Origin: Shigella phage SP18
Direction: 5' to 3' (one strand)
Sequence record: GQ981382
DNA length: 64,000 nucleotides
The notes under the pieces were generated by a model that saw only the letters and a program-made list of their open reading frames with translations, was not told the origin of the DNA and ran no database searches. The position numbers and the translations under genes were made by a program. Shown piece by piece: positions 5,288 to 59,687 of the stretch; within the stretch, counting starts at the first letter, position 1, and each line of letters begins with the position of its first letter.

Positions 5288-5548
5288 TCATTCAAATCGG
5301 ATGGTTGAATTTTTAAACAGCAATCCAGAACAAACAGTTCCTTTAACTTTCTTACCGGTTGGGCCTACGGCTGTAAAACCAGTATGCTGAAAATCATCTT
5401 CAGAGCAACCCAACCAGTTATATCCGGTGATTTGGATTTGCTCATAGCCGTTTGCATCTAATACCCGAATGGCATTATCTGCATCAGTACAACCAGCCAA
5501 TGAAACCGCCAGTACCAGTGCTGCAATAGAACGATTAATGTATTTCAT
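5288..5548 (-). CDS. small lipoprotein (signal peptide with lipobox LAGC)
   Basis: MKYINRSIAALVLAVSLAGC N-terminus; ATG with GAGGAA SD. Confidence 0.6.
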   Translation of the reverse strand: MKYINRSIAALVLAVSLAGCTDADNAIRVLDANGYEQIQITGYNWLGCSEDDFQHTGFTAVGPTGKKVKGTVCSGLLFKNSTIRFE

Positions 5549-5732
5549 AATTCCTCACTTAGTCAGCAGGTCGTAAAAACCGCCATTAACATGTTTAGGA
5601 GCCGAGACTAACCGAACAGCCAGCCGATGGCAATCAGGACAAACATCATTATCTCTTTCAGAGATTTTCTTGATTTTTTCGTATTCTTTCGCGCAGTCAT
5701 TGGATTGGCATTTGTAGTCATAAAGTGGCATG

Positions 5733-6107
5733 TTATTCCTTAAAATGTGCTTTCAACATCTGGTAAACGGTCCAGGCTTCAGAGTTATTAGAAATGGTGA
5801 TTTTAGCCAAAGGGAATTCGCTTGGTTCAAATGCTTCATCAGCGTCTTCGCATTCATCTTCAGTATCGTCATCTTTTTCTTCTTCAAAGAAACGACGCTC
5901 ATCTTCCTTTATGAATATTCTCTCCATTCCACCGGTCGAAAATTCTATCCGATATACATCACCACCTTCAATTCCGACTGGTCTAAATCCTTCACCATTG
6001 ATTATAGCATCAGCTATATTATCATTATCAGAGCATAACAAACGGAATCTGCTTTCAGCAACATTATCTTTAAAATAATACCATTTATCAGTTTCAAATT
6101 TCAACAT
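5733..6107 (-). CDS. hypothetical acidic protein
   Basis: track ORF 5733..6248 overlaps upstream gene; internal ATG (MLKFETDKWYYF) with AAGGAGA SD gives 124 aa. Confidence 0.45.
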   Translation of the reverse strand: MLKFETDKWYYFKDNVAESRFRLLCSDNDNIADAIINGEGFRPVGIEGGDVYRIEFSTGGMERIFIKEDERRFFEEEKDDDTEDECEDADEAFEPSEFPLAKITISNNSEAWTVYQMLKAHFKE

Positions 6108-6324
6108 GATAAGTCTCCTTCCAAAAATCTGTACCATCTTCTGATTCTTCGCGGAACAGCGCATAGCTAGGTAGTTCCGCACCTTCATACGCATACACAT
6201 AAATGATATCAGTTGTGCAAAGAAATTCATTGATATTTTTCTTAACAATCACTTTATCACTTTCAGCGGTTTCCCAGAACTCTTCAGCGGTCAGGGAAGT
6301 GGTCACACAATCTTCATTAAACAT
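6094..6324 (-). CDS. hypothetical protein
   Basis: 76 aa, ATG with GAGGAGA SD. Confidence 0.5.
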   Translation of the reverse strand: MFNEDCVTTSLTAEEFWETAESDKVIVKKNINEFLCTTDIIYVYAYEGAELPSYALFREESEDGTDFWKETYHVEI

Positions 6325-6370: not shown

Positions 6371-6862
6371 TTAGGCAAAATGAATATCAGCATACTCAAC
6401 GATAAAGCTCTCAGGAACAACCTTAAAGGTTCCAAGGAATACGATATTATACAGTTTGACACCTTCTTCAACCCACTGGTCGGTGATGTAACCAGACATA
6501 CTAGTGGTTTCATAAGTCGGACCGTACTTGCAATTGTATTCAAACGGTTTAGGTGAAACGAAAAAGACACCTTTACCTAATTTCCATTTAAAATCAACCC
6601 CAACATGAGACTGGTCAATGGTTTCAACTTCTTCAACTACTGGAGCGATGTATCCAGTAAATTCAGTTGATTCCAGGAATTTAGGATGTACATAAGCCAA
6701 TTGAGTTTCAGCATGACCATGTTTAGGAATAATACGCACTTTAACTTCTTTAATTCCACCTACTAAATTAGTGCGAAGACTCACAACCTCAACAAAACGA
6801 CCAGCAGCTTTAGAACGAGATTCTTTAGAAACACGTACAATATCACCTTCTTCAACTTTCAT
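6371..6862 (-). CDS. motB: MotB-like modifier of transcription
   Basis: 163 aa, position and size match T4 MotB (162 aa); called from memory of the T4 sequence. Confidence 0.65.
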   Translation of the reverse strand: MKVEEGDIVRVSKESRSKAAGRFVEVVSLRTNLVGGIKEVKVRIIPKHGHAETQLAYVHPKFLESTEFTGYIAPVVEEVETIDQSHVGVDFKWKLGKGVFFVSPKPFEYNCKYGPTYETTSMSGYITDQWVEEGVKLYNIVFLGTFKVVPESFIVEYADIHFA

Positions 6863-16006: not shown

Positions 16007-17035
16007 CTAAACTTTTGCGTACTTCGAAAGTCGCATTCTCGCCATCAATCCTTGAGCAACGTTATCGGCCATATATGATTCGATTTGTTCAGGGGTTGCC
16101 CCTTCTGATTTAACCATCTCATTTATGTCTTTCGTATGCCATGGTGCATTGTCCCAGAACATAACAGCTTCGCCAGCTTCAACGAGCTTCTTCATACGTT
16201 TAATCGTATCCGGATGTCTTGGCTCGTTGTCCATTACCCATACTCTTGTTTCAGCATAAGGAACAGCTTCCAATGCCAATGTGCCACCGGTTATCGCAAT
16301 GCTGTTAGGGATAAACAAACTATCAATTGGACCTTCCATTACCCATACGCGTTTACGCTCATCAATCTTGTCTACTCCATAGACTTTGGAAGCTTCTGGG
16401 TGAGCTTTGATTGTGATATATTTTTGTGGTGCATCTTTGCGAAGAGCTCGTCCTTGGAAAGATTCGATTTCTTTTTTGCCGTTGAAGATAGGAATAACCA
16501 AGCGTGGCTCATTCGTTTCATTCTTATACGTCCCGGGATTAACGGAGTTAACTAATGCAGGCCATTTGTTTGTAAACCATAACCGGTTCCAAACATTGCT
16601 AGGAATACACCGACTTTTTACATACTTAATTATCGGATGTGCTTCTGGTAAAGTATCGAGTCTTTCACAAAAAGCAAGCTGCTCGATAACCGGAGTTTTT
16701 TCTGGTTCTTTCGGAGTTTCTGCAACTTCATTGCGCTGTCTGCCAAAGGCATTCTCCTTATACTTCTCAACCATATATTCCCGGTGTAAATCCGGCTCAA
16801 ACTCTTTTATGTATTTGCTTATATGCGTGGAGTAGTCACAGTTAAAACATTTCACGTAAACCGCGCCATCAGACGGATTGGTATACGCCCAGAATCGAGC
16901 TTTATGTGAATCTTTCTGGGAGTCGCCACAAACTTTACATCTGCAGTTTGCCTTAAATGTGCTCCCGGTGACTTCTCTATAACGTGGTTGATACGATAAA
17001 GCTCTGACTGCAAATTCTTTATCAATATATGACAT
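16007..17035 (-). CDS. 61: DNA primase gp61
   Basis: 342 aa, same length as T4 gp61; N-terminal Cys4 zinc ribbon (CRCKVCGD...CFNCDY) and Toprim core. Confidence 0.9.
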   Translation of the reverse strand: MSYIDKEFAVRALSYQPRYREVTGSTFKANCRCKVCGDSQKDSHKARFWAYTNPSDGAVYVKCFNCDYSTHISKYIKEFEPDLHREYMVEKYKENAFGRQRNEVAETPKEPEKTPVIEQLAFCERLDTLPEAHPIIKYVKSRCIPSNVWNRLWFTNKWPALVNSVNPGTYKNETNEPRLVIPIFNGKKEIESFQGRALRKDAPQKYITIKAHPEASKVYGVDKIDERKRVWVMEGPIDSLFIPNSIAITGGTLALEAVPYAETRVWVMDNEPRHPDTIKRMKKLVEAGEAVMFWDNAPWHTKDINEMVKSEGATPEQIESYMADNVAQGLMARMRLSKYAKV

Positions 17036-17067: not shown

Positions 17068-17235
17068 TTATACTGTAGGTTTATCGTCTTTGTTCTTACG
17101 CTTTTTTGATGGGATTTGTTCAGGGCCTTTATTGACAACCACCCCGGAAGTGGTACCTGTTGCGGTATTAGTTGGGTTTCCACCTGCATCACCGGCAACC
17201 ATATCTTCGTTTATAAAATCTTTGAATGTTTTCAT
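17068..17235 (-). CDS. small protein (55 aa) with IP-like capsid-targeting N-terminus MKTFKDFINED and basic C-terminus
   Basis: ATG preceded by AGGGGG SD; N-terminus resembles MKTYQEFITE of the IP genes; hand-derived coordinates. Confidence 0.4.
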   Translation of the reverse strand: MKTFKDFINEDMVAGDAGGNPTNTATGTTSGVVVNKGPEQIPSKKRKNKDDKPTV

Positions 17236-17254
17236 AACACCCCCTTTCCGCTAT

Positions 17255-17446
17255 TTATACAACAAAGATAGCTTTATCACCATTTGCATCAGTCACTTCA
17301 TAAGTGTCTTCATGATACAACGGAATAATCCAGGTAACACCATCATCAGCGATAACATGGATTGCTTCTTGGTCTTGCGACACGATTTCATATTCTTCAA
17401 AAAGCTGGAAGACCGAAATCTTAGAGCCCGTACACATTGCACTCAT
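17255..17446 (-). CDS. hypothetical acidic protein
   Basis: 63 aa ORF. Confidence 0.45.
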   Translation of the reverse strand: MSAMCTGSKISVFQLFEEYEIVSQDQEAIHVIADDGVTWIIPLYHEDTYEVTDANGDKAIFVV

Positions 17447-21547: not shown

Positions 21548-21876
21548 CTCTTTTTCATTTTAATTTTATCAATTTCATCTTGTATTTGCATTGTAACACA
21601 CTTTTCTACATGCACAGCAAGCTCCGCTTTGCGGTCTTCAGAAGGGGTGCCGAAATCAACTGAAACTTTTCCAGATGGTTCAATTTTAATTCCGGTTACG
21701 TACACAATGTGACTGGACCCATCAGGGAGTGATAACAGAATTTCCTGCCGTACAGTTCCCATGGATTGCCGGATAATCTCCAAACTTTTTTCGTAGTAAG
21801 GTACAGAAGGAGCCTTAGCTCCCTCCGCATCTTTCTCGAAATTATCTAAATCAGATAAATCGATATCATTCATCAA
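21532..21876 (-). CDS. 40: gp40-like protein (head vertex assembly chaperone position)
   Basis: 114 aa between 41 and uvsX as in T4; positional. Confidence 0.5.
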   Translation of the reverse strand: MMNDIDLSDLDNFEKDAEGAKAPSVPYYEKSLEIIRQSMGTVRQEILLSLPDGSSHIVYVTGIKIEPSGKVSVDFGTPSEDRKAELAVHVEKCVTMQIQDEIDKIKMKKRWWKW

Positions 21877-23044
21877 GGTCTTCCATCATATCTAAATCGT
21901 TTTCGATATCTGCCGCAGACGGTTTTGTCTTACCTTCAGGAGCAGTGTATTTTTCAACCTTGGAGGCAATAAGCGCATCAACTTCGGCATCAACAACAGC
22001 ATTGCTATCGATTGCACCCAGTTGGTAATGGCGTTTGATTGCATCACGGAAAGGTTCGTGCTTGAACAGCGGGCCCCAGAATTCGGTGCAGTTAGTATCT
22101 TTTGCGCGCCATGATTTTTCTTCGCGGACCATTTCACCGGTCTCAACATCAAGATATTCACGGTTATACCAACCAACTTTTGGTTTCACCACAAATCCGA
22201 TTTCCATTGCCATATCAAGCAGGCCAGAATACGGGTCAATACCCCCATCGAATTTTACATCAATGAAGAATTTACTTTTCTCTTTGACCATACGAGATTT
22301 TTCGGCGTTCAGAACAAATTGGAAGCCTTCAAGTTCTTTACCAGTTTCTTTAATCTGGCGTTTGCCGATAATGAATACGGTGTCTGCGGAATACATAACA
22401 CCTGTACCACCGGTCATAACGGTTTTGCTATACATCTCAATCGTCTCGATTGTATGGTTAACCGCGACACAAGGAATATCCTTGATGCTAAAATACGGGG
22501 TAACAATACGGAACAGAGATTTCAGGGATTTAGCACGAGTCATATCACCAACAACTTTTTCGTTCATCGCATCTTCTGTTTCTTTTTTCGACGCCATGTT
22601 ACCGATTGAGTCAATAAAGATAATGACTTTTTCACCACGCTCAATTGCTTCAAGCTGGTTAACCATATCAACTTTCAATTGTTCAACCGACTGGATTGGT
22701 GTATGGATAACACGCTCCGGGTCAACTTTCATTGCACGAAGATATGCTTCTGTGATACCAAATTCTGAATCATAGAACAAACAGATTGCATCGGGGTATT
22801 TGTTCATATATGCAGAGACCATCGTTAAACCCATATTGGATTTAAAGTGTTTTGACGGACCAGCAAAAATAGTCAAACCTGACTGCATACCACCATCTAG
22901 TGCACCGCTGATTGCAATGTTCAGCATCGGGATTTTTGTACGAACTACATCTTTATCATTAAAGAACTTGGACTTGGTAAGAGTCGCAGTCATTTTGGAT
23001 GTAGAAGCTTTAATCAAACGGGATTTCAAATCTGCAATAGACAT
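21866..23044 (-). CDS. uvsX: UvsX recombinase (RecA/Rad51 family)
   Basis: 392 aa; near-colinear with T4 UvsX (Walker A GPSKHFKSN). Confidence 0.95.
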   Translation of the reverse strand: MSIADLKSRLIKASTSKMTATLTKSKFFNDKDVVRTKIPMLNIAISGALDGGMQSGLTIFAGPSKHFKSNMGLTMVSAYMNKYPDAICLFYDSEFGITEAYLRAMKVDPERVIHTPIQSVEQLKVDMVNQLEAIERGEKVIIFIDSIGNMASKKETEDAMNEKVVGDMTRAKSLKSLFRIVTPYFSIKDIPCVAVNHTIETIEMYSKTVMTGGTGVMYSADTVFIIGKRQIKETGKELEGFQFVLNAEKSRMVKEKSKFFIDVKFDGGIDPYSGLLDMAMEIGFVVKPKVGWYNREYLDVETGEMVREEKSWRAKDTNCTEFWGPLFKHEPFRDAIKRHYQLGAIDSNAVVDAEVDALIASKVEKYTAPEGKTKPSAADIENDLDMMEDLDE

Positions 23045-23129
23045 TCATTTTTTCCATAGGCACCATTATATTTTTCTCACAGGTTTAAGATAGGATAATT
23101 ATATCACTGTATTTTTAGAGCAATTAATG

Positions 23130-23633
23130 TTAGTTAATACCTTGGCGTGCTTTCTCTTTAGCTATACATTTATTAATATAGCTCAGACGGTTTTGAGCAG
23201 AACGCTGATACATATCGCGGTACTCATTAGCTTTTGGAGAACCCGTCTCCGCCGCCTGATAAGCTTCCGCGCGCATGATGTTTATCTGCATATTGATGTA
23301 TGACATGCAGACCTGCGAAATCTGGTTAACAGTATCCAGGTCATTTTGTCGCTTGGTTTCTGCTTCCAGCTTGGCAATGATTTCGTCATGCTTCGCAGCT
23401 TGCTCGCGTTTGTACTCAATTTCTTGTTGAGCATATTTCGCGCAGTTGTTTCCACATTGATTGTTGTCGCGTTTGTAGATAAGTCCAGTACCACCTTTGA
23501 AATCAAAGGAACCATTATGCACCCGACGGTCGGCAGCAATTCGCGCTTTACCAATCTCGTTGGCATTAACAACATCACCCTGGTAAGCACAACCAGATAG
23601 CAGCATAACAGCTGCGATAGCTAACTTTTTCAT
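23130..23633 (-). CDS. lipoprotein of unknown function, coiled-coil rich
   Basis: signal peptide plus lipobox MKKLAIAAVMLLSGC; track ORF extended upstream. Confidence 0.55.
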   Translation of the reverse strand: MKKLAIAAVMLLSGCAYQGDVVNANEIGKARIAADRRVHNGSFDFKGGTGLIYKRDNNQCGNNCAKYAQQEIEYKREQAAKHDEIIAKLEAETKRQNDLDTVNQISQVCMSYINMQINIMRAEAYQAAETGSPKANEYRDMYQRSAQNRLSYINKCIAKEKARQGIN

Positions 23634-23783
23634 TGTATTTTCCTCAATTAAAACATTCATAGCGGGCTTGGAGCCCCAAAAATACCCAACCCAAAATTAA
23701 AGTTGGAATCATATGTGGAGTCATTATTGCCCAGTAGATTGACATACTAAAAAATGCAATCAGTACAATAATTGTAATTATCT

Positions 23784-24026
23784 TCATTTTGCTTCCTTGA
23801 TGATAATTACTTGTGCGTTTGATTTACGTTCAGCAACGAGTGCCCAGATAAATGCAATAAACCATCCGACCATTGTCCAACCTAACAGGAGGTTAACAAA
23901 GAAGATTCCGCAATTACTTTTGGTTCCACGCAGTAGCGCGATAATCCACGGCAGAAAATATGCCAGTGCAGCCAGGAAGAAAGAACCTGCACCAAGAACA
24001 ACAGTACCCGCAATTAATGTTTCCAT
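23784..24026 (-). CDS. small two-TM membrane protein (possible Imm-like, immediately upstream of gene 43)
   Basis: 80 aa highly hydrophobic; T4 imm occupies this position; assignment tentative. Confidence 0.5.
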   Translation of the reverse strand: METLIAGTVVLGAGSFFLAALAYFLPWIIALLRGTKSNCGIFFVNLLLGWTMVGWFIAFIWALVAERKSNAQVIIIKEAK

Positions 24027-55442: not shown

Positions 55443-55901
55443 TTAGATATAAATCACTTTTGTGCTAATTTTTCCTTCCAGACGATTAGAGTTAACAAAC
55501 GCCATACGACAACACATGGTTGGAGACTTCCCAGGAATAGCTGGATTAACTGTCATTCCTAACCATAGGTTCTTGTCTGTGATTTCCAGACGAAGTGGAC
55601 GGTAGTTCACATTCGGGTCAATTTGTGCTTCAACTTCCGGGAGTGGTTTCATCTCCAGGAATTCAACGATTTCTTTTACATGTGGTGTGATTTTTCCAAA
55701 CAAGTCAAAAACATATTGTTCATCAATTTCACGTTGGATTGCACGGTCCAATAGGTGTGGACTGTACTTAATGAAGAATACTTCAAGGCCTGCTTCTTTA
55801 CAAGCCTTGTTGATAGCATTATTAATTTTGAGGAACTCCGTTTCAAAAATGCGACGAAGTTTATTGCGGCGAATGTAAACACTTGAATCGATAGTAGTCA
55901 T
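55443..55901 (-). CDS. regB: RegB sequence-specific endoribonuclease
   Basis: about 152 aa from MTTIDSSVYIRRNKLRR; HLLDRAIQREIDE and YRPLRLEITDKNLWLG match T4 RegB. Confidence 0.85.
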   Translation of the reverse strand: MTTIDSSVYIRRNKLRRIFETEFLKINNAINKACKEAGLEVFFIKYSPHLLDRAIQREIDEQYVFDLFGKITPHVKEIVEFLEMKPLPEVEAQIDPNVNYRPLRLEITDKNLWLGMTVNPAIPGKSPTMCCRMAFVNSNRLEGKISTKVIYI

Positions 55902-55928
55902 GATTATCTCCTTTTGTTTGATGGGATA

Positions 55929-56537
<609 letters not shown>

Positions 56538-56771: not shown

Positions 56772-57045
56772 TAATTAATCGCACATCCTGGTCATAGGTC
56801 AGGAGGCTACGAGTGATAATACCCTTACACGGTCCAGAAATAAATTCCAGAGTAAAGTAAGGAACCTGTTTCATTAATCGGATACTTGGAGCATGACATC
56901 TAAAACGAGAGCCCTTAAAGGGCCCTGACATGAATACATATTCTAATGGATAGAAATAAGCATATTCAAAATTTGTAGTAAGGTCCTCTCTTCGGACCTT
57001 ACGTGAGAAATAACAGAACTCAAAAAGTTCTTCATCAGTCATCAT
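56749..57045 (-). CDS. hypothetical protein
   Basis: 98 aa ORF. Confidence 0.45.
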   Translation of the reverse strand: MMTDEELFEFCYFSRKVRREDLTTNFEYAYFYPLEYVFMSGPFKGSRFRCHAPSIRLMKQVPYFTLEFISGPCKGIITRSLLTYDQDVRLISDWKKYV

Positions 57046-57569
57046 TGCATTCCTATCACAAAGAACAGTGGCAGAGGTTTAGAACCTTGGCACATAAATT
57101 TATTCATCATTGTCTGATAAGCTTCATAGAACTTATCCATCGCTGGTAGGCGAATAGGCTCTTCAATAATAATCAATAATCGGGTAACAGACAGTCCACG
57201 ATATTTGTGAAAATGATCTTCATCTAAAAATGAACGAACAGTATCATATACAACAAAACCAGGTCGTTCAACATTAAGATGTGGCTGTGCTTTAGAAACC
57301 CGCTTTATTATATCACAGATTTCTCGTGAGCGATGCGAAGAACTCGACATAACAATCACATCATTACCTTTGGAAACCCAATCCGCAGCAAACTGTGCAA
57401 TGGCACTTGTTTTACCTGTTTGTCGCCCACCGTCAAGTCTCAGAGTGCCAAACTCTTGCATTCTTGAAGCGGGTTCATACCAGGTGTATTGGTCTGAATC
57501 TAAACGTTCAATGGCGCGTTCAGCGAAGGCGTGCATTAAGGTTAGATAAATGGGAGTTAAAAATTTCAT
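57042..57569 (-). CDS. P-loop NTPase of unknown function
   Basis: 175 aa; Walker A GGRQTGKTS and Walker B-like LLIIIEEP. Confidence 0.55.
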   Translation of the reverse strand: MKFLTPIYLTLMHAFAERAIERLDSDQYTWYEPASRMQEFGTLRLDGGRQTGKTSAIAQFAADWVSKGNDVIVMSSSSHRSREICDIIKRVSKAQPHLNVERPGFVVYDTVRSFLDEDHFHKYRGLSVTRLLIIIEEPIRLPAMDKFYEAYQTMMNKFMCQGSKPLPLFFVIGMQ

Positions 57570-57730
57570 AATTGTCTCTTAGTTGGTGGGGCCGTTCCTT
57601 GGCACATAATTCATCCATGTATCCGTATGTAAACCCTTTACCGCACTTGGGCTCGACCTTATTACAGGTAGGGAAAGGTCCATCACTCAGAGGACGCGAC
57701 GTTCATGAGGAGAGGGCCGGCTTGCCTTTA

Positions 57731-58030
57731 TTAGAAAGAACCAGAGCCTTTAATTGTGTTCTGGCGACCTTTATTTTCTAATTCAGAATGGTCAATTTCA
57801 TATGCTTGTGCTACACCAAAAGCCTTTTTAACTTTAGCTAAAGAACCTTTAGATGTAACAATATTAAAAGTATTACCTTTGGTAAAATCAACCAAATCCA
57901 CTTGTACACCTTGTTTACCGAGGCTTGCGACAATAGCATCAACATATTGTTGGTCTAAATTGCCCTGGACTCCAATTTGGAATGCTTTAGGAGCTTTAGC
58001 TTCTGTGATAAATTCTTGATAAGTTTTCAT
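57731..58030 (-). CDS. internal protein (IP) with capsid-targeting sequence, cargo of unknown function
   Basis: 99 aa; N-terminus MKTYQEFITEA matches the T4 IP capsid-targeting/cleavage motif; own early promoter. Confidence 0.7.
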   Translation of the reverse strand: MKTYQEFITEAKAPKAFQIGVQGNLDQQYVDAIVASLGKQGVQVDLVDFTKGNTFNIVTSKGSLAKVKKAFGVAQAYEIDHSELENKGRQNTIKGSGSF

Positions 58031-58055
58031 TTATTCTCTCCAAGTTGATGGGATA

Positions 58056-58084
58056 ATTATGCACTATCCCATCAAAAAGTAAAC
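58056..58084 (-). promoter_or_regulatory. early promoter (GTTTAC -35, CATAAT -10) for the first IP gene
   Basis: GTTTACtttttgatgggatagtgCATAATtatcccatcaacttggagagaataa-ATG. Confidence 0.55.
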
Positions 58085-58086
58085 AG

Positions 58087-58350
58087 TTATGCTTTACCGC
58101 CAGAAACAATACCAAAGGTCTCAAAGTCCCATTCAATATCGTCAACATCAACTTTCTTACCAGCAACCACGAATGCGATTTCGCGACGTTTTGCATAGGT
58201 GACAATTTCTTTACCGTCACCACCAAAGAAAGAATAACCATTGCGCTTCATGGTGCCAAAGTCTTCAGCATCACCAGCAAACGCGCGGACTTTAAAGGAA
58301 CCGGCAGGAGCTTTAGTAGATTCAGTAATAAATTCTTGATAAGTTTTCAT
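58087..58350 (-). CDS. internal protein (IP) with capsid-targeting sequence, cargo of unknown function
   Basis: 87 aa; N-terminus MKTYQEFITES; 13 nt downstream of the preceding IP gene. Confidence 0.7.
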   Translation of the reverse strand: MKTYQEFITESTKAPAGSFKVRAFAGDAEDFGTMKRNGYSFFGGDGKEIVTYAKRREIAFVVAGKKVDVDDIEWDFETFGIVSGGKA

Positions 58351-58363
58351 AATGTCTCTTTAA

Positions 58364-58678
58364 TTACTCTTTAGGGAAATCGCGCAAAAACGCATCATAA
58401 AGTTTATTACCAATGCGACGGAATGCTTTTGCCGCATGAACGTTATCCGGATTTGCAATTTTAATTTGCATTACATGACTACCGGCCCATGATTTGGCTT
58501 CATCATAATAGCCTTTAATTTCTTTAATAGTCTTACGTTTTCCGCCAGGACCATCAACAGTAATTTTCCACGAACCGGTGCTTGTTTCACTTGGTGGGGT
58601 TAATTGTTCAATCCAGACATAACCGCCTTCAACACGTTTTTGGGTAGATTCAGTAATAAATTCTTGATAAGTTTTCAT
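58364..58678 (-). CDS. internal protein (IP) with capsid-targeting sequence, cargo of unknown function
   Basis: about 104 aa from MKTYQEFITEST; track ORF extends through promoter leader. Confidence 0.7.
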   Translation of the reverse strand: MKTYQEFITESTQKRVEGGYVWIEQLTPPSETSTGSWKITVDGPGGKRKTIKEIKGYYDEAKSWAGSHVMQIKIANPDNVHAAKAFRRIGNKLYDAFLRDFPKE

Positions 58679-58708
58679 TTTATATTCCATTGTTTGGTTG
58701 ATAAAATC

Positions 58709-58738
58709 ATTATACAACCTTTTTAGTTAAGCGTACAC
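58709..58738 (-). promoter_or_regulatory. early promoter for the IP operon; -35 GTGTAC lies inside the denV C-terminal codons
   Basis: GTGTACgcttaactaaaaaggttgTATAATgattttatcaacc. Confidence 0.5.
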
Positions 58739-59143
58739 AGCTTTCCCATAGTATTTGTACCAGGTAGGCTTTTGAGAAATTTTCTCATTCAGTCTGGCTT
58801 GACTGATTTTAATTGACCAGATTGATGGTTGATAATCATTCTTCCATTCATCAGGAATATCATTTAAATCTTGGGTAGAAATATCTTTTATGTTAAACCC
58901 TCGCTTTAAACATTCCGCAATAAGTTCTTGATGACGGTTTTTAAGGAACAAAAGTTTATCATAAAAGAAGGTGACATGACCAGTCCCTAGAAGAAAAGAT
59001 GATGGGATTTTAAAGTCAGAAACCTTTTTACCATTTTGTACATGCTTACGAACAGCACCAAAAACGCGAGGAAGCTCACGATATTCAGCCATAAGATGTT
59101 GGTCAGCAAGTTCAGATACCAGAGTTAAATTAATGCGAGTCAT
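58727..59143 (-). CDS. denV: endonuclease V (pyrimidine-dimer DNA glycosylase)
   Basis: 138 aa; [35 protein letters not shown] near-identical to T4 DenV N-terminus. Confidence 0.95.
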
Positions 59144-59169
59144 GTTTGTTCTCCGTAGTTGATAGGGTC

Positions 59170-59199
59170 ATTATAACCCTACCATTTGGAGATGTACAC
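59170..59199 (-). promoter_or_regulatory. early promoter (GTGTAC -35, TATAAT -10) upstream of denV
   Basis: GTGTACatctccaaatggtagggtTATAATgaccctatcaactacggaga. Confidence 0.55.
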
Positions 59200-59687
59200 T
59201 AATATGCGTCAAAAGTTCCAGTACGGAAAGTTTCGATAACTCGTTTGGCTCGGTTCGGAGTCTGGACTTTATACCATCTCGAGTCGGCCAGTTCCTTAGC
59301 GGCGGCTTCCCATGATTTAGCCTTCAGCAATCGCATACCCTTAGGAAAACCAGCAACACCAGCAACACCCATCTGGAATACCATATTAATGAGCGCACAC
59401 CGACGGACTTCATCCAGTACATCATAAACAGGTTTTAAGACAGGATGCCTCAAGATTCCAGCTTTAGCCTTTTCGACCGAACGGTTAAACAGTGTTTCAG
59501 CTTCGTGCTGGGTTATACGGCCATTACAGACACGACCCATGAGCTTGTCGAGCTCGGCACGAGCAACATCTTTTGATGGGTTCTTAGTTATCAGTTGCCC
59601 GATACCAATGGTCCAAAAGCCTTCGGTATCTTTATACAAATCCAACTTACAACCTTCATCTATGCGTAACATTTCGAATATATTCAT
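59199..59687 (-). CDS. e: lysozyme (endolysin) e
   Basis: 162 aa; [12 protein letters not shown] and catalytic region [13 protein letters not shown] as in T4 lysozyme. Confidence 0.95.

Follow-up and report, generated by a model that had tools for sequence, protein, structure and literature searches.

What the head of a T4-like phage delivers into the cell together with its DNA, and against which host system, is the question raised by three consecutive genes of Shigella phage SP18 (record GQ981382) in the 64,000-nucleotide (nt) stretch analysed here (the window). The open reading frame (ORF) listing places an ip7-family internal head protein gene of 99 amino acids (aa) at 57731..58030, an unnumbered internal head protein gene of 87 aa (RB69 ORF125c/VR7ORF127c family) at 58087..58350 and an ip10-family gene of 104 aa, counted from the MKTYQ ATG at 58678, at 58364..58678, the name ip7 following the annotation of phages VR7 and VR20. 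All three genes are on the minus strand, which corrects the original prediction made from the sequence of this region; its description of three consecutive genes of 99, 87 and about 104 aa beginning MKTYQEFITE and then A or S was borne out by the ORF listing. By analogy with the internal proteins (IPs) of T4, it is proposed that Ip7, Ip10 and the unnumbered IP are probably packaged, injected and cassette-evolving inhibitors of host nucleases.

The evidence for packaging lies in the leader. All three proteins open with MKTYQEFITE, the next residue being A in the 99-aa protein and S in the 87-aa and 104-aa proteins, such that each carries the protease motif I8-T9-E10 followed by A or S. Nine of the ten residues are equal to those of the leader of T4 IPII and IPIII (MKTYQEFIAE/A), the sole change being A9T at the free 'x' position, with the N-terminus of T4 IPI reading MKTFKEF...ITE/A. 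The first 10 residues of IPIII are enough for packaging, and within this capsid-targeting sequence (CTS) targeting depends on residues 4 and 7 and processing on residues 8 and 10, cleavage by gp21 occurring after the Glu in L/I-x-E; fusions of the leader to foreign proteins are both packaged and delivered (PMC9026906, a review of the Black laboratory's work). Y4 and F7 (targeting) and I8 and E10 (processing) are kept in all three window proteins, and the [LI]xE motif occurs only at the leader in Ip7, the 87-aa protein and all three T4 IPs. The predicted mature products are 89 aa, 9.5 kDa and isoelectric point (pI) 9.3 for Ip7 (cut at ITE/A), 77 aa, 8.3 kDa and pI 6.2 for the 87-aa gene, and 94 aa, 10.6 kDa and pI 9.6 for Ip10. 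The small basic character typical of IPs is accordingly seen in Ip7 and Ip10, the 87-aa protein being near-neutral. That the three proteins are packaged and processed internal proteins is very likely. A search of the literature for virion proteomics of these IP families or of VR7-like phages found none.

Two further features of Ip10 concern its processing and its start. Inside the cargo Ip10 carries a second [LI]xE motif, IKE/IK, at residues 51-53 (window 58518-58526), which is LKE in close homologues and IKD or LKD in CC31-type sequences, and the protein might be cut at this second site into two fragments of ~5 kDa. The ip10 ORF as machine-listed spans 58364-58717 and starts at a TTG, and there is a second in-frame ATG at 58690, four codons 5′ of the leader, giving a product of 108 aa (MEYK-MKTYQ...). 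This ATG, for which a ribosome-binding site is not obvious, is taken as the start in some records (108 aa for SP18 Ip10 and 103 aa for the fused ip7 of phage RZ); its use would displace the targeting sequence from the extreme N-terminus.

The leader is also a repeat at the level of the DNA. The 30-nt pattern ATGAAAACTTATCAAGAATTTATTACTGAA, for which 0 matches are expected by chance, is present on the minus strand with 0 mismatches in ip10 (58649..58678) and in the 87-aa gene (58321..58350) and with two synonymous mismatches in ip7 (58001..58030). The first ~30 coding nt, originally claimed to be identical, are so in the 87-aa and 104-aa genes, with the 99-aa gene matching at 28/30 positions, and the repeat reaches 43 nt at 81-84% identity. 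The proposal that this repeat is a recombination substrate was borne out by a deletion/insertion series among phages with flanks >92% identical to the window. While ip10, the 87-aa gene and ip7 are all present in the window, VR7 and VR20, VR26 lacks the 87-aa gene, its ip7 having the upstream spacer and 5′ end of the 87-aa gene (ATTACTGAATCTGCTAAAG) fused to the ip7 cargo, with the shared tract running into the (T/A)KAP codons found after the leader in both genes. P479 and P896 lack ip10 and have the 87-aa gene fused to the denV-proximal leader, and in RZ ip7 alone remains, fused likewise to the denV-proximal leader. All of these junctions are inside the leader-coding repeat, the copy in the 87-aa gene being the crossover zone of the VR26 deletion chimera and the copy in ip10 that of the P479/P896 and RZ variants. 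The comparison of the locus across genomes thus found three, two or one gene in near-identical phages and directly supports recombination at the leader-coding repeat, the documentation of which is new in this analysis.

The same plasticity was apparent on a wider scale. Using denV as an anchor, 80 loci were taken from IMG/VR, and 35 T4-like loci were analysed (31 from IMG/VR with the window, VR7, VR20 and T4). The CTS-led ORFs of these 35 loci fall into 20 cargo families, in keeping with the original description of the locus as hyperplastic, and CTS genes were found on both flanks of denV, with Ip7 and IpIII lying upstream in some phages and downstream in others. VR7 has a second IP locus (tRNA.4 to 57B, outside the window) with five further CTS genes, including a distant paralogue of the 87-aa family. 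The array thus evolves as a cassette system, in which genes are gained or lost through homologous recombination in the shared leader-coding repeat of ~30-45 nt, and such recombination accounts for the same cargo families appearing in differing numbers, orders and positions in related phages, be it on one or the other flank of denV or at the second IP locus.

Beyond the leader the three proteins have nothing recognisable in common. Pairwise BLASTP among the three cargo parts gave no matches, BLASTP of the cargos against T4 IPI*, IPII* and IPIII* gave no significant match (best E 0.12), and clustering at E 1e-4 placed the three cargos and the T4 IPs in separate families. In keeping with the original prediction, the cargos are thus unrelated to one another and to T4 IPI-III, homology to the T4 IPs being the finding that had been set down there as contrary to it. 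The 99-aa and 87-aa proteins both match PHROG 2667, raising the possibility of a shared fold; this was rejected at the sequence level, with cargo-only BLASTP blank and an hhalign probability of 0.2% for the cargo parts, and because both of these were blank the joint match is attributed to the leader.

The proteins themselves are not new, and neither are the kind of locus, its plasticity or the anti-defence hypothesis, all of which are already in the literature. The Ip7 and Ip10 families are reported to have been originally described by Repoila et al. in 1994 (EMBO J 13:4181). Papers citing that work credit it with the polymorphic IP loci (PMC12373910, PMC2839356, PMC4122927). The window region is 93-97% identical to the Gaprivervirus phages VR20, VR7, VR25, TH57 and others. 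In VR7 the 99-aa gene is annotated as ip7 ('similar to ... T2 internal head protein Ip7'), the 87-aa gene as VR7ORF127c ('internal head protein', similar to RB69 ORF125c) and the 104-aa gene as ip10 ('similar to RB69 ORF124c and bacteriophage Pol Ip10'); VR20 has the same three annotations and an additional ip5 between denV and e. The 99-aa protein matches PHROGs phrog_2667, 'internal head protein', at E 8e-43; its identity is 94-99% with the ip7 products of Gaprivervirus and 42-47% with those of RB69-type phages. For the 104-aa protein the match is to phrog_3966 at E 2.5e-32, and this protein is 100% identical to 'Ip10 [Shigella phage SP18]', while the 87-aa protein matches only 'internal head protein' entries, none of them with an Ip number. 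The novelty implied by the original prediction does not stand in the face of these existing labels.

Cargo-only tblastn found Ip7 in 282 phage records, the 87-aa family in 204 and Ip10 in 188, in phages of Escherichia, Shigella, Klebsiella, Enterobacter, Salmonella and Citrobacter and including RB69, S16 and CC31; some of the 204 records have a second, distant copy of the 87-aa family elsewhere in the genome. A deep search with the Ip10 cargo recovered one genuine relative cluster among 1.84 billion representatives, such that a bacterial homologue hinting at its function is absent. Searches of Pfam and NCBIfam with the three proteins found no family and sequence-profile searches of the PDB found no relatives. 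The AlphaFold2 model of Ip7 (16 sequences, mean pLDDT 74.7) has a disordered leader and a core of beta-alpha-beta-beta-alpha-beta with a C-terminal helix, residues 12-80 being at pLDDT 80-90, with structural matches only to generic ferredoxin-like folds (RRM/ACT-like) and a best BFVD match to 'Ip7 protein [phage MX01]'. The model of the 87-aa protein was unusable (pLDDT 51). The structure and remote-homology searches that had been proposed as a check therefore yielded the generic fold of Ip7 and no family, and neither sequence nor fold discloses a function for the three cargos.

A function is suggested by what is known of T4. Following the T4 pathway, the 10-residue leader would bind the three precursors to the prohead scaffolding core and the prohead protease (gp21 homologue) would cut after Glu10 of I-T-E, leaving mature proteins of 8.3-10.6 kDa that would stay in the head and then be ejected into the cell with the DNA. 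In the cytoplasm each would most likely disable one particular host 'first-response' nuclease that cuts incoming DNA, and by analogy with T4 Ip1, Ip2 and Ip3 the expected target would be some variant of the GmrSD-like restriction enzymes, which are modification-dependent (type IV). IPI* inhibits the GmrSD of strain CT596. It has recently been shown that the GmrSD enzyme inhibited is a different one for each of Ip1, Ip2 and Ip3, with such inhibition proposed also for the other proteins of the two Ip loci (Silas et al., 2025; PMC12373910), such that the anti-defence reading presented as novel in the original prediction is the stated hypothesis of that study. On ECOR17 ipIII is required, and IPIII is active in the cytoplasm without its leader (Srikant et al., PMC9391042). 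On this analogy an anti-defence role for the three proteins is reasonably likely; that their targets are GmrSD-type enzymes is somewhat doubtful.

A number of observations weigh against the three proteins acting as the T4 proteins do. In tblastn searches of the 64-kb window with T4 gp42 (dCMP hydroxymethylase) and beta-glucosyltransferase (beta-gt) there was no match, the flanking uvsX and imm being found. In T4 the slot for gene 42 and beta-gt is between uvsX and imm, the window counterpart of which is at 21869-24026. The VR7 annotation is likewise without gene 42 and beta-gt, the slot holding ORF049c and 42.1, and gene 56 (dCTPase) is annotated. Two comparative papers describe Gaprivervirus as having no enzyme forming hydroxymethylcytosine (hmC), with dCTPase, alc, denA and denB nevertheless retained; their suggestion is an unidentified non-canonical base. 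The glucosyl-hmC substrate that underlies the logic of T4 may therefore be absent in this phage, and as gene 42 and beta-gt were not found in the window a GmrSD target cannot be assumed, which weakens the analogy with IPI* and GmrSD drawn in the original prediction. In addition, no BLASTP or PDB relationship was found to the known GmrSD inhibitors IPI*, Ip2 and Ip3.

These same observations favour the alternative that survives best, in which the proteins, though packaged and injected, have their target outside type IV restriction, the candidates being type I-III restriction-modification, BREX, nuclease-helicase systems and abortive-infection sensors, or host takeover in the manner of the packaged ADP-ribosyltransferase Alt. 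Both the lack of gene 42 and beta-gt in the window and the lack of relationship between the cargos and the three known GmrSD inhibitors are consistent with this, as is the model of Ip7, the RRM/ACT-like scaffold often binding RNA or small ligands, and Alt is itself a packaged protein with another role (PMC9026906). However, all three T4 IPs with known targets inhibit GmrSD-type enzymes (PMC12373910), the same families occur in phages including RB69, S16 and CC31, with Mosigvirus and Tequatrovirus reported to have modified cytosine, and proteins of 77-94 aa are too small to be Alt-like enzymes. As such, this alternative is considered unlikely. A mainly structural or DNA-associated role as head contents, in DNA condensation or neutralisation or in filling the core and with no specific host target, is less probable still. 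It would be in keeping with the basic pI values of two of the three proteins (9.3 and 9.6) and with the ~300 copies of T4 IPs in each head and their DNA binding at low salt (PMC9026906), but it leaves unexplained the unrelated cargos, the presence or absence of genes in near-identical phages and the existence of 20 interchangeable families, the 87-aa protein is near-neutral, and the T4 IPs, long viewed in this way, proved to be specific inhibitors (PMC12373910). That any of the genes is in decay or is now a remnant without function, its leader kept through gene conversion with its neighbours, might be argued from the 87-aa gene having no promoter cassette of its own and being missing from VR26, and from ip10 being missing from P479/P896, but is highly improbable given that all three ORFs are intact and that each keeps its full length between genera, with 46-78% identity and with cargo motifs that are conserved (GDAEDFG..KRNGY and R-x-NT-[IL]-K-G among them), a pattern that indicates purifying selection.

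The proposal that the three proteins are injected inhibitors of host nucleases places them beside T4 IPI-III, with which they share a leader 9/10 identical to that of IPII/IPIII, the L/I-x-E site, small size, a location beside denV, a variable locus architecture and, in two of the three, a similarly basic character. They differ in that the cargos are unrelated, the genes are found downstream of denV and not, as in T4, in the interval from denV to e, the T4 proteins inhibit defined GmrSD enzymes, and the window is without the hmC genes 42 and beta-gt. With respect to the Ip7 and Ip10 families of T-even phages there is no difference of substance, the 99-aa and 104-aa proteins being direct members. 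The locus also resembles the anti-CRISPR and anti-defence hot-spots, in which small, unrelated and rapidly exchanged genes occupy a fixed position between conserved anchors (Silas et al., PMC12373910), but differs from these in that the IP cassettes share a protein address tag, which serves both for delivery of pre-made protein with the DNA and as a recombination joint.

Arriving ready-made with the DNA, IPs could disarm host nucleases before phage genes are expressed, and they help to set host range, which is relevant to phage therapy. Targets are known for only three of the ~20 cargo families. The Ip7, Ip10 and 87-aa families are widespread and small, making them easy to take into screens of the kind by which Ip2 and Ip3 were solved, and for host-range comparisons a ready-made set exists in the natural series of near-identical phages with three, two or one gene. 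The genus being apparently without hmC, the usual logic of targets may fail, which raises the case slightly above routine interest.

The array sits in a known IP locus of T4-like phages, that around denV and e, between vs.8 and denV. Upstream are denV (endonuclease V; 58727..59143, minus strand), a conserved anchor gene identified from the ORF listing and the VR7 annotation, the lysozyme gene e and nudE. Downstream is the vs.8 homologue (57042..57569, minus strand), a conserved neighbour identified in the same way with the P-loop motif GGRQTGKTS, and then vs.7 to vs.3 and regB, the last being within 55443-55958, five genes beyond vs.8. The gene order vs.8-ip7-87aa-ip10-denV-e differs from that of T4 (vs.8-denV-ipII-ipIII-e), in agreement with the position unlike that of T4 that had been claimed. 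The genes had been placed between regB and denV, which was correct on the denV side, the immediate downstream neighbour being vs.8 and not regB. The coordinates given for the locus (57731-58738) were otherwise right, with the end overrunning 12 nt into denV.

Two regions within the array resemble the promoter-early stem-loop (PeSL) elements of the hyperplastic regions of T4-type phages. PeSLs serve both as promoters and as terminators, and modular shuffling takes place through them; their T4/PST consensus is TTTACW-N17-TAYWAT, and the authors describing them state that Repoila et al. (1994) had noted the same pattern at IP loci; promoter and terminator activity and the formation of mini-circles have been shown experimentally in RB49/phi1 only (Arbiol 2010, PMC2839356; Comeau 2014, PMC4122927). 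Upstream of ip7 a PeSL-like cassette (58031..58086, minus strand) has GTTTAC (58084-58079), a 17-nt spacer and CATAAT (58061-56), with a perfect 11-bp inverted repeat TTGATGGGATA/TATCCCATCAA (58045-55/58065-75) around the -10 box and a predicted ribosome-binding site GGAGAG at 58041-36. Upstream of ip10 a PeSL-like leader overlapping the end of denV (58679..58738, minus strand) has GTGTAC (58738-33), an 18-nt spacer and TATAAT (58714-09), with a 5-bp stem GGTTG/CAACC (58719-15/58700-696). The 87-aa gene is without a cassette of its own, beginning 13 nt past the ip10 stop. The ip10-type leader is the one to which the 87-aa gene of P479/P896 and the ip7 of RZ are fused, a related PeSL-like motif precedes denV, and the ip7-type cassette (GATGGGATA...TATCCCATC) recurs in VR7 at the second IP locus, where it precedes ip6 and ORF153c.

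In sequence the motifs upstream of ip7 and ip10 fit PeSL-like cassettes. They have -35 and -10 boxes like those of early promoters, a spacer of 17-18 nt and an overlapping stem-loop between the upstream stop and the next ATG; the T4/PST consensus is matched 5′ of ip7, and the motif is repeated at several cassette boundaries and at both IP loci. They differ in that the crossovers of the natural variants map to the coding leader repeat and not to the PeSL, and in that one of the three genes is without a PeSL. No exact T4 late promoter was found in the locus, the window-wide count being at chance level, and 57500-59300 yielded no MotA box. In ip7 the ribosome-binding site (GGAGAG, 58036-58041) contains GGAG, the motif cut by the RegB endoribonuclease according to an annotation note in the T4 record. 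RegB could conceivably inactivate early ip7 transcripts from the PeSL-like promoter, limiting translation to later messages.

A separate feature bounds the array downstream. Between ip7 and vs.8 is a GC-rich stretch of 160 nt that is conserved in 984 phage records and contains a conserved, structured RNA-like element that forms a fixed downstream boundary of the array, identified from alignment and covariation as a core at 57619..57726 (minus strand) with a 3′ hairpin GCCAAGGAACGGC at about 57591-57603. The element is present in nearly every T4-like locus and always directly upstream of vs.8. In T4 it is buried in the annotated N-terminal extension of vs.8. Such an N-terminal coding extension, as implied by the T4 annotation, was ruled out by stops in most sequences and the lack of 3-periodicity, and the annotated start of T4 vs.8 is probably mis-placed; no conserved ORF was found in the element. 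A tRNA or known RNA was likewise ruled out, ARAGORN and Rfam finding nothing in the GC-rich 160 nt.

In a MAFFT alignment of 23 sequences over the 108-nt core, 94.5% of cells were paired against 84.7% in shuffles (0/500) and 24-43% in slid controls, 10 pairs were changed on both sides (shuffles 0/500), and the covariation score was 0.28 against 0.01-0.06 in slid controls. The closing helix takes the forms CCG/CGG, CAC/GTG, CGC/GCG, CCA/TGG, CTG/CAG and TCG/CGA, and one C-G pair of a hairpin stem is lost on both sides in four sequences. G-U cells exceed A-C cells by 25:4, an excess that favours the gene strand. A covariance model found one copy per locus at 98-130 bits, with a shortened T4-type version at 45-52 bits, and the covariation persists on the covariance-model alignment, though that alignment is fitted to the model. 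These data support a multi-helix RNA structure backed by covariation, the structure being partly derived from the same sequences. The element is a candidate new structured RNA, which could act as a cis-regulatory leader of vs.8, could stabilise upstream transcripts at their 3′ ends or could be a stable RNA.

Variants of the element were seen in other loci. One T4-like phage locus (L019) has tandem copies at 5421-5529 and 5556-5639, scoring 117 and 55 bits, and a jumbo-phage locus (L030, 792-878) gave a weak covariance-model match at 23 bits (E 0.008). In two Klebsiella-type loci from IMG/VR (L034 and L036; about 6054-6183 and 6555-6583) ip7 is downstream of the element, and a 29-nt piece of the element 3′ end (ATGTGCCAAGGAATGGCCCC...) is repeated on both flanks of ip7, which suggests that this piece may double as an insertion joint for cassettes. 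The Ip7 homologues P0014 and P0017-P0019 have N-terminal extensions beginning MCQGMAPFNL.

In a bolder proposal Ip7, Ip10 and the 87-aa protein would neutralise host systems other than the glucosyl-hmC-directed GmrSD enzymes in a lineage that has lost the hmC pathway, with the array separately bounded by the undescribed structured RNA of ~108 nt; this is tentative and, as a whole, rather unlikely. If true, it would provide new inhibitor-target pairs, for example an RRM/ACT-like Ip7 that binds a nucleic acid or small molecule on which a defence system is built, and the ~108-nt RNA may be a new class of cis-regulatory or stable RNA that is in part an insertion joint for cassettes.

Elsewhere in the window gene 61.1 (17068-17235, minus strand; 55 aa), directly upstream of the primase gene 61 (16007-17035), may encode a fourth packaged peptide, as judged from its N-terminus. 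No report of gp61.1 as a packaged peptide was found in the literature. An exact late-promoter octamer TATAAATA is at 17252-17259, 16 nt 5′ of 61.1, there being none at this position in T4 and the window count of the octamer being at chance. The N-terminus of gp61.1 (MKTFKDFINE/D) is CTS-like with an I-x-E motif, the remainder being of low complexity with a basic tail, and that of T4 gp61.1 (MKTFKEFIKE/D) is similar.

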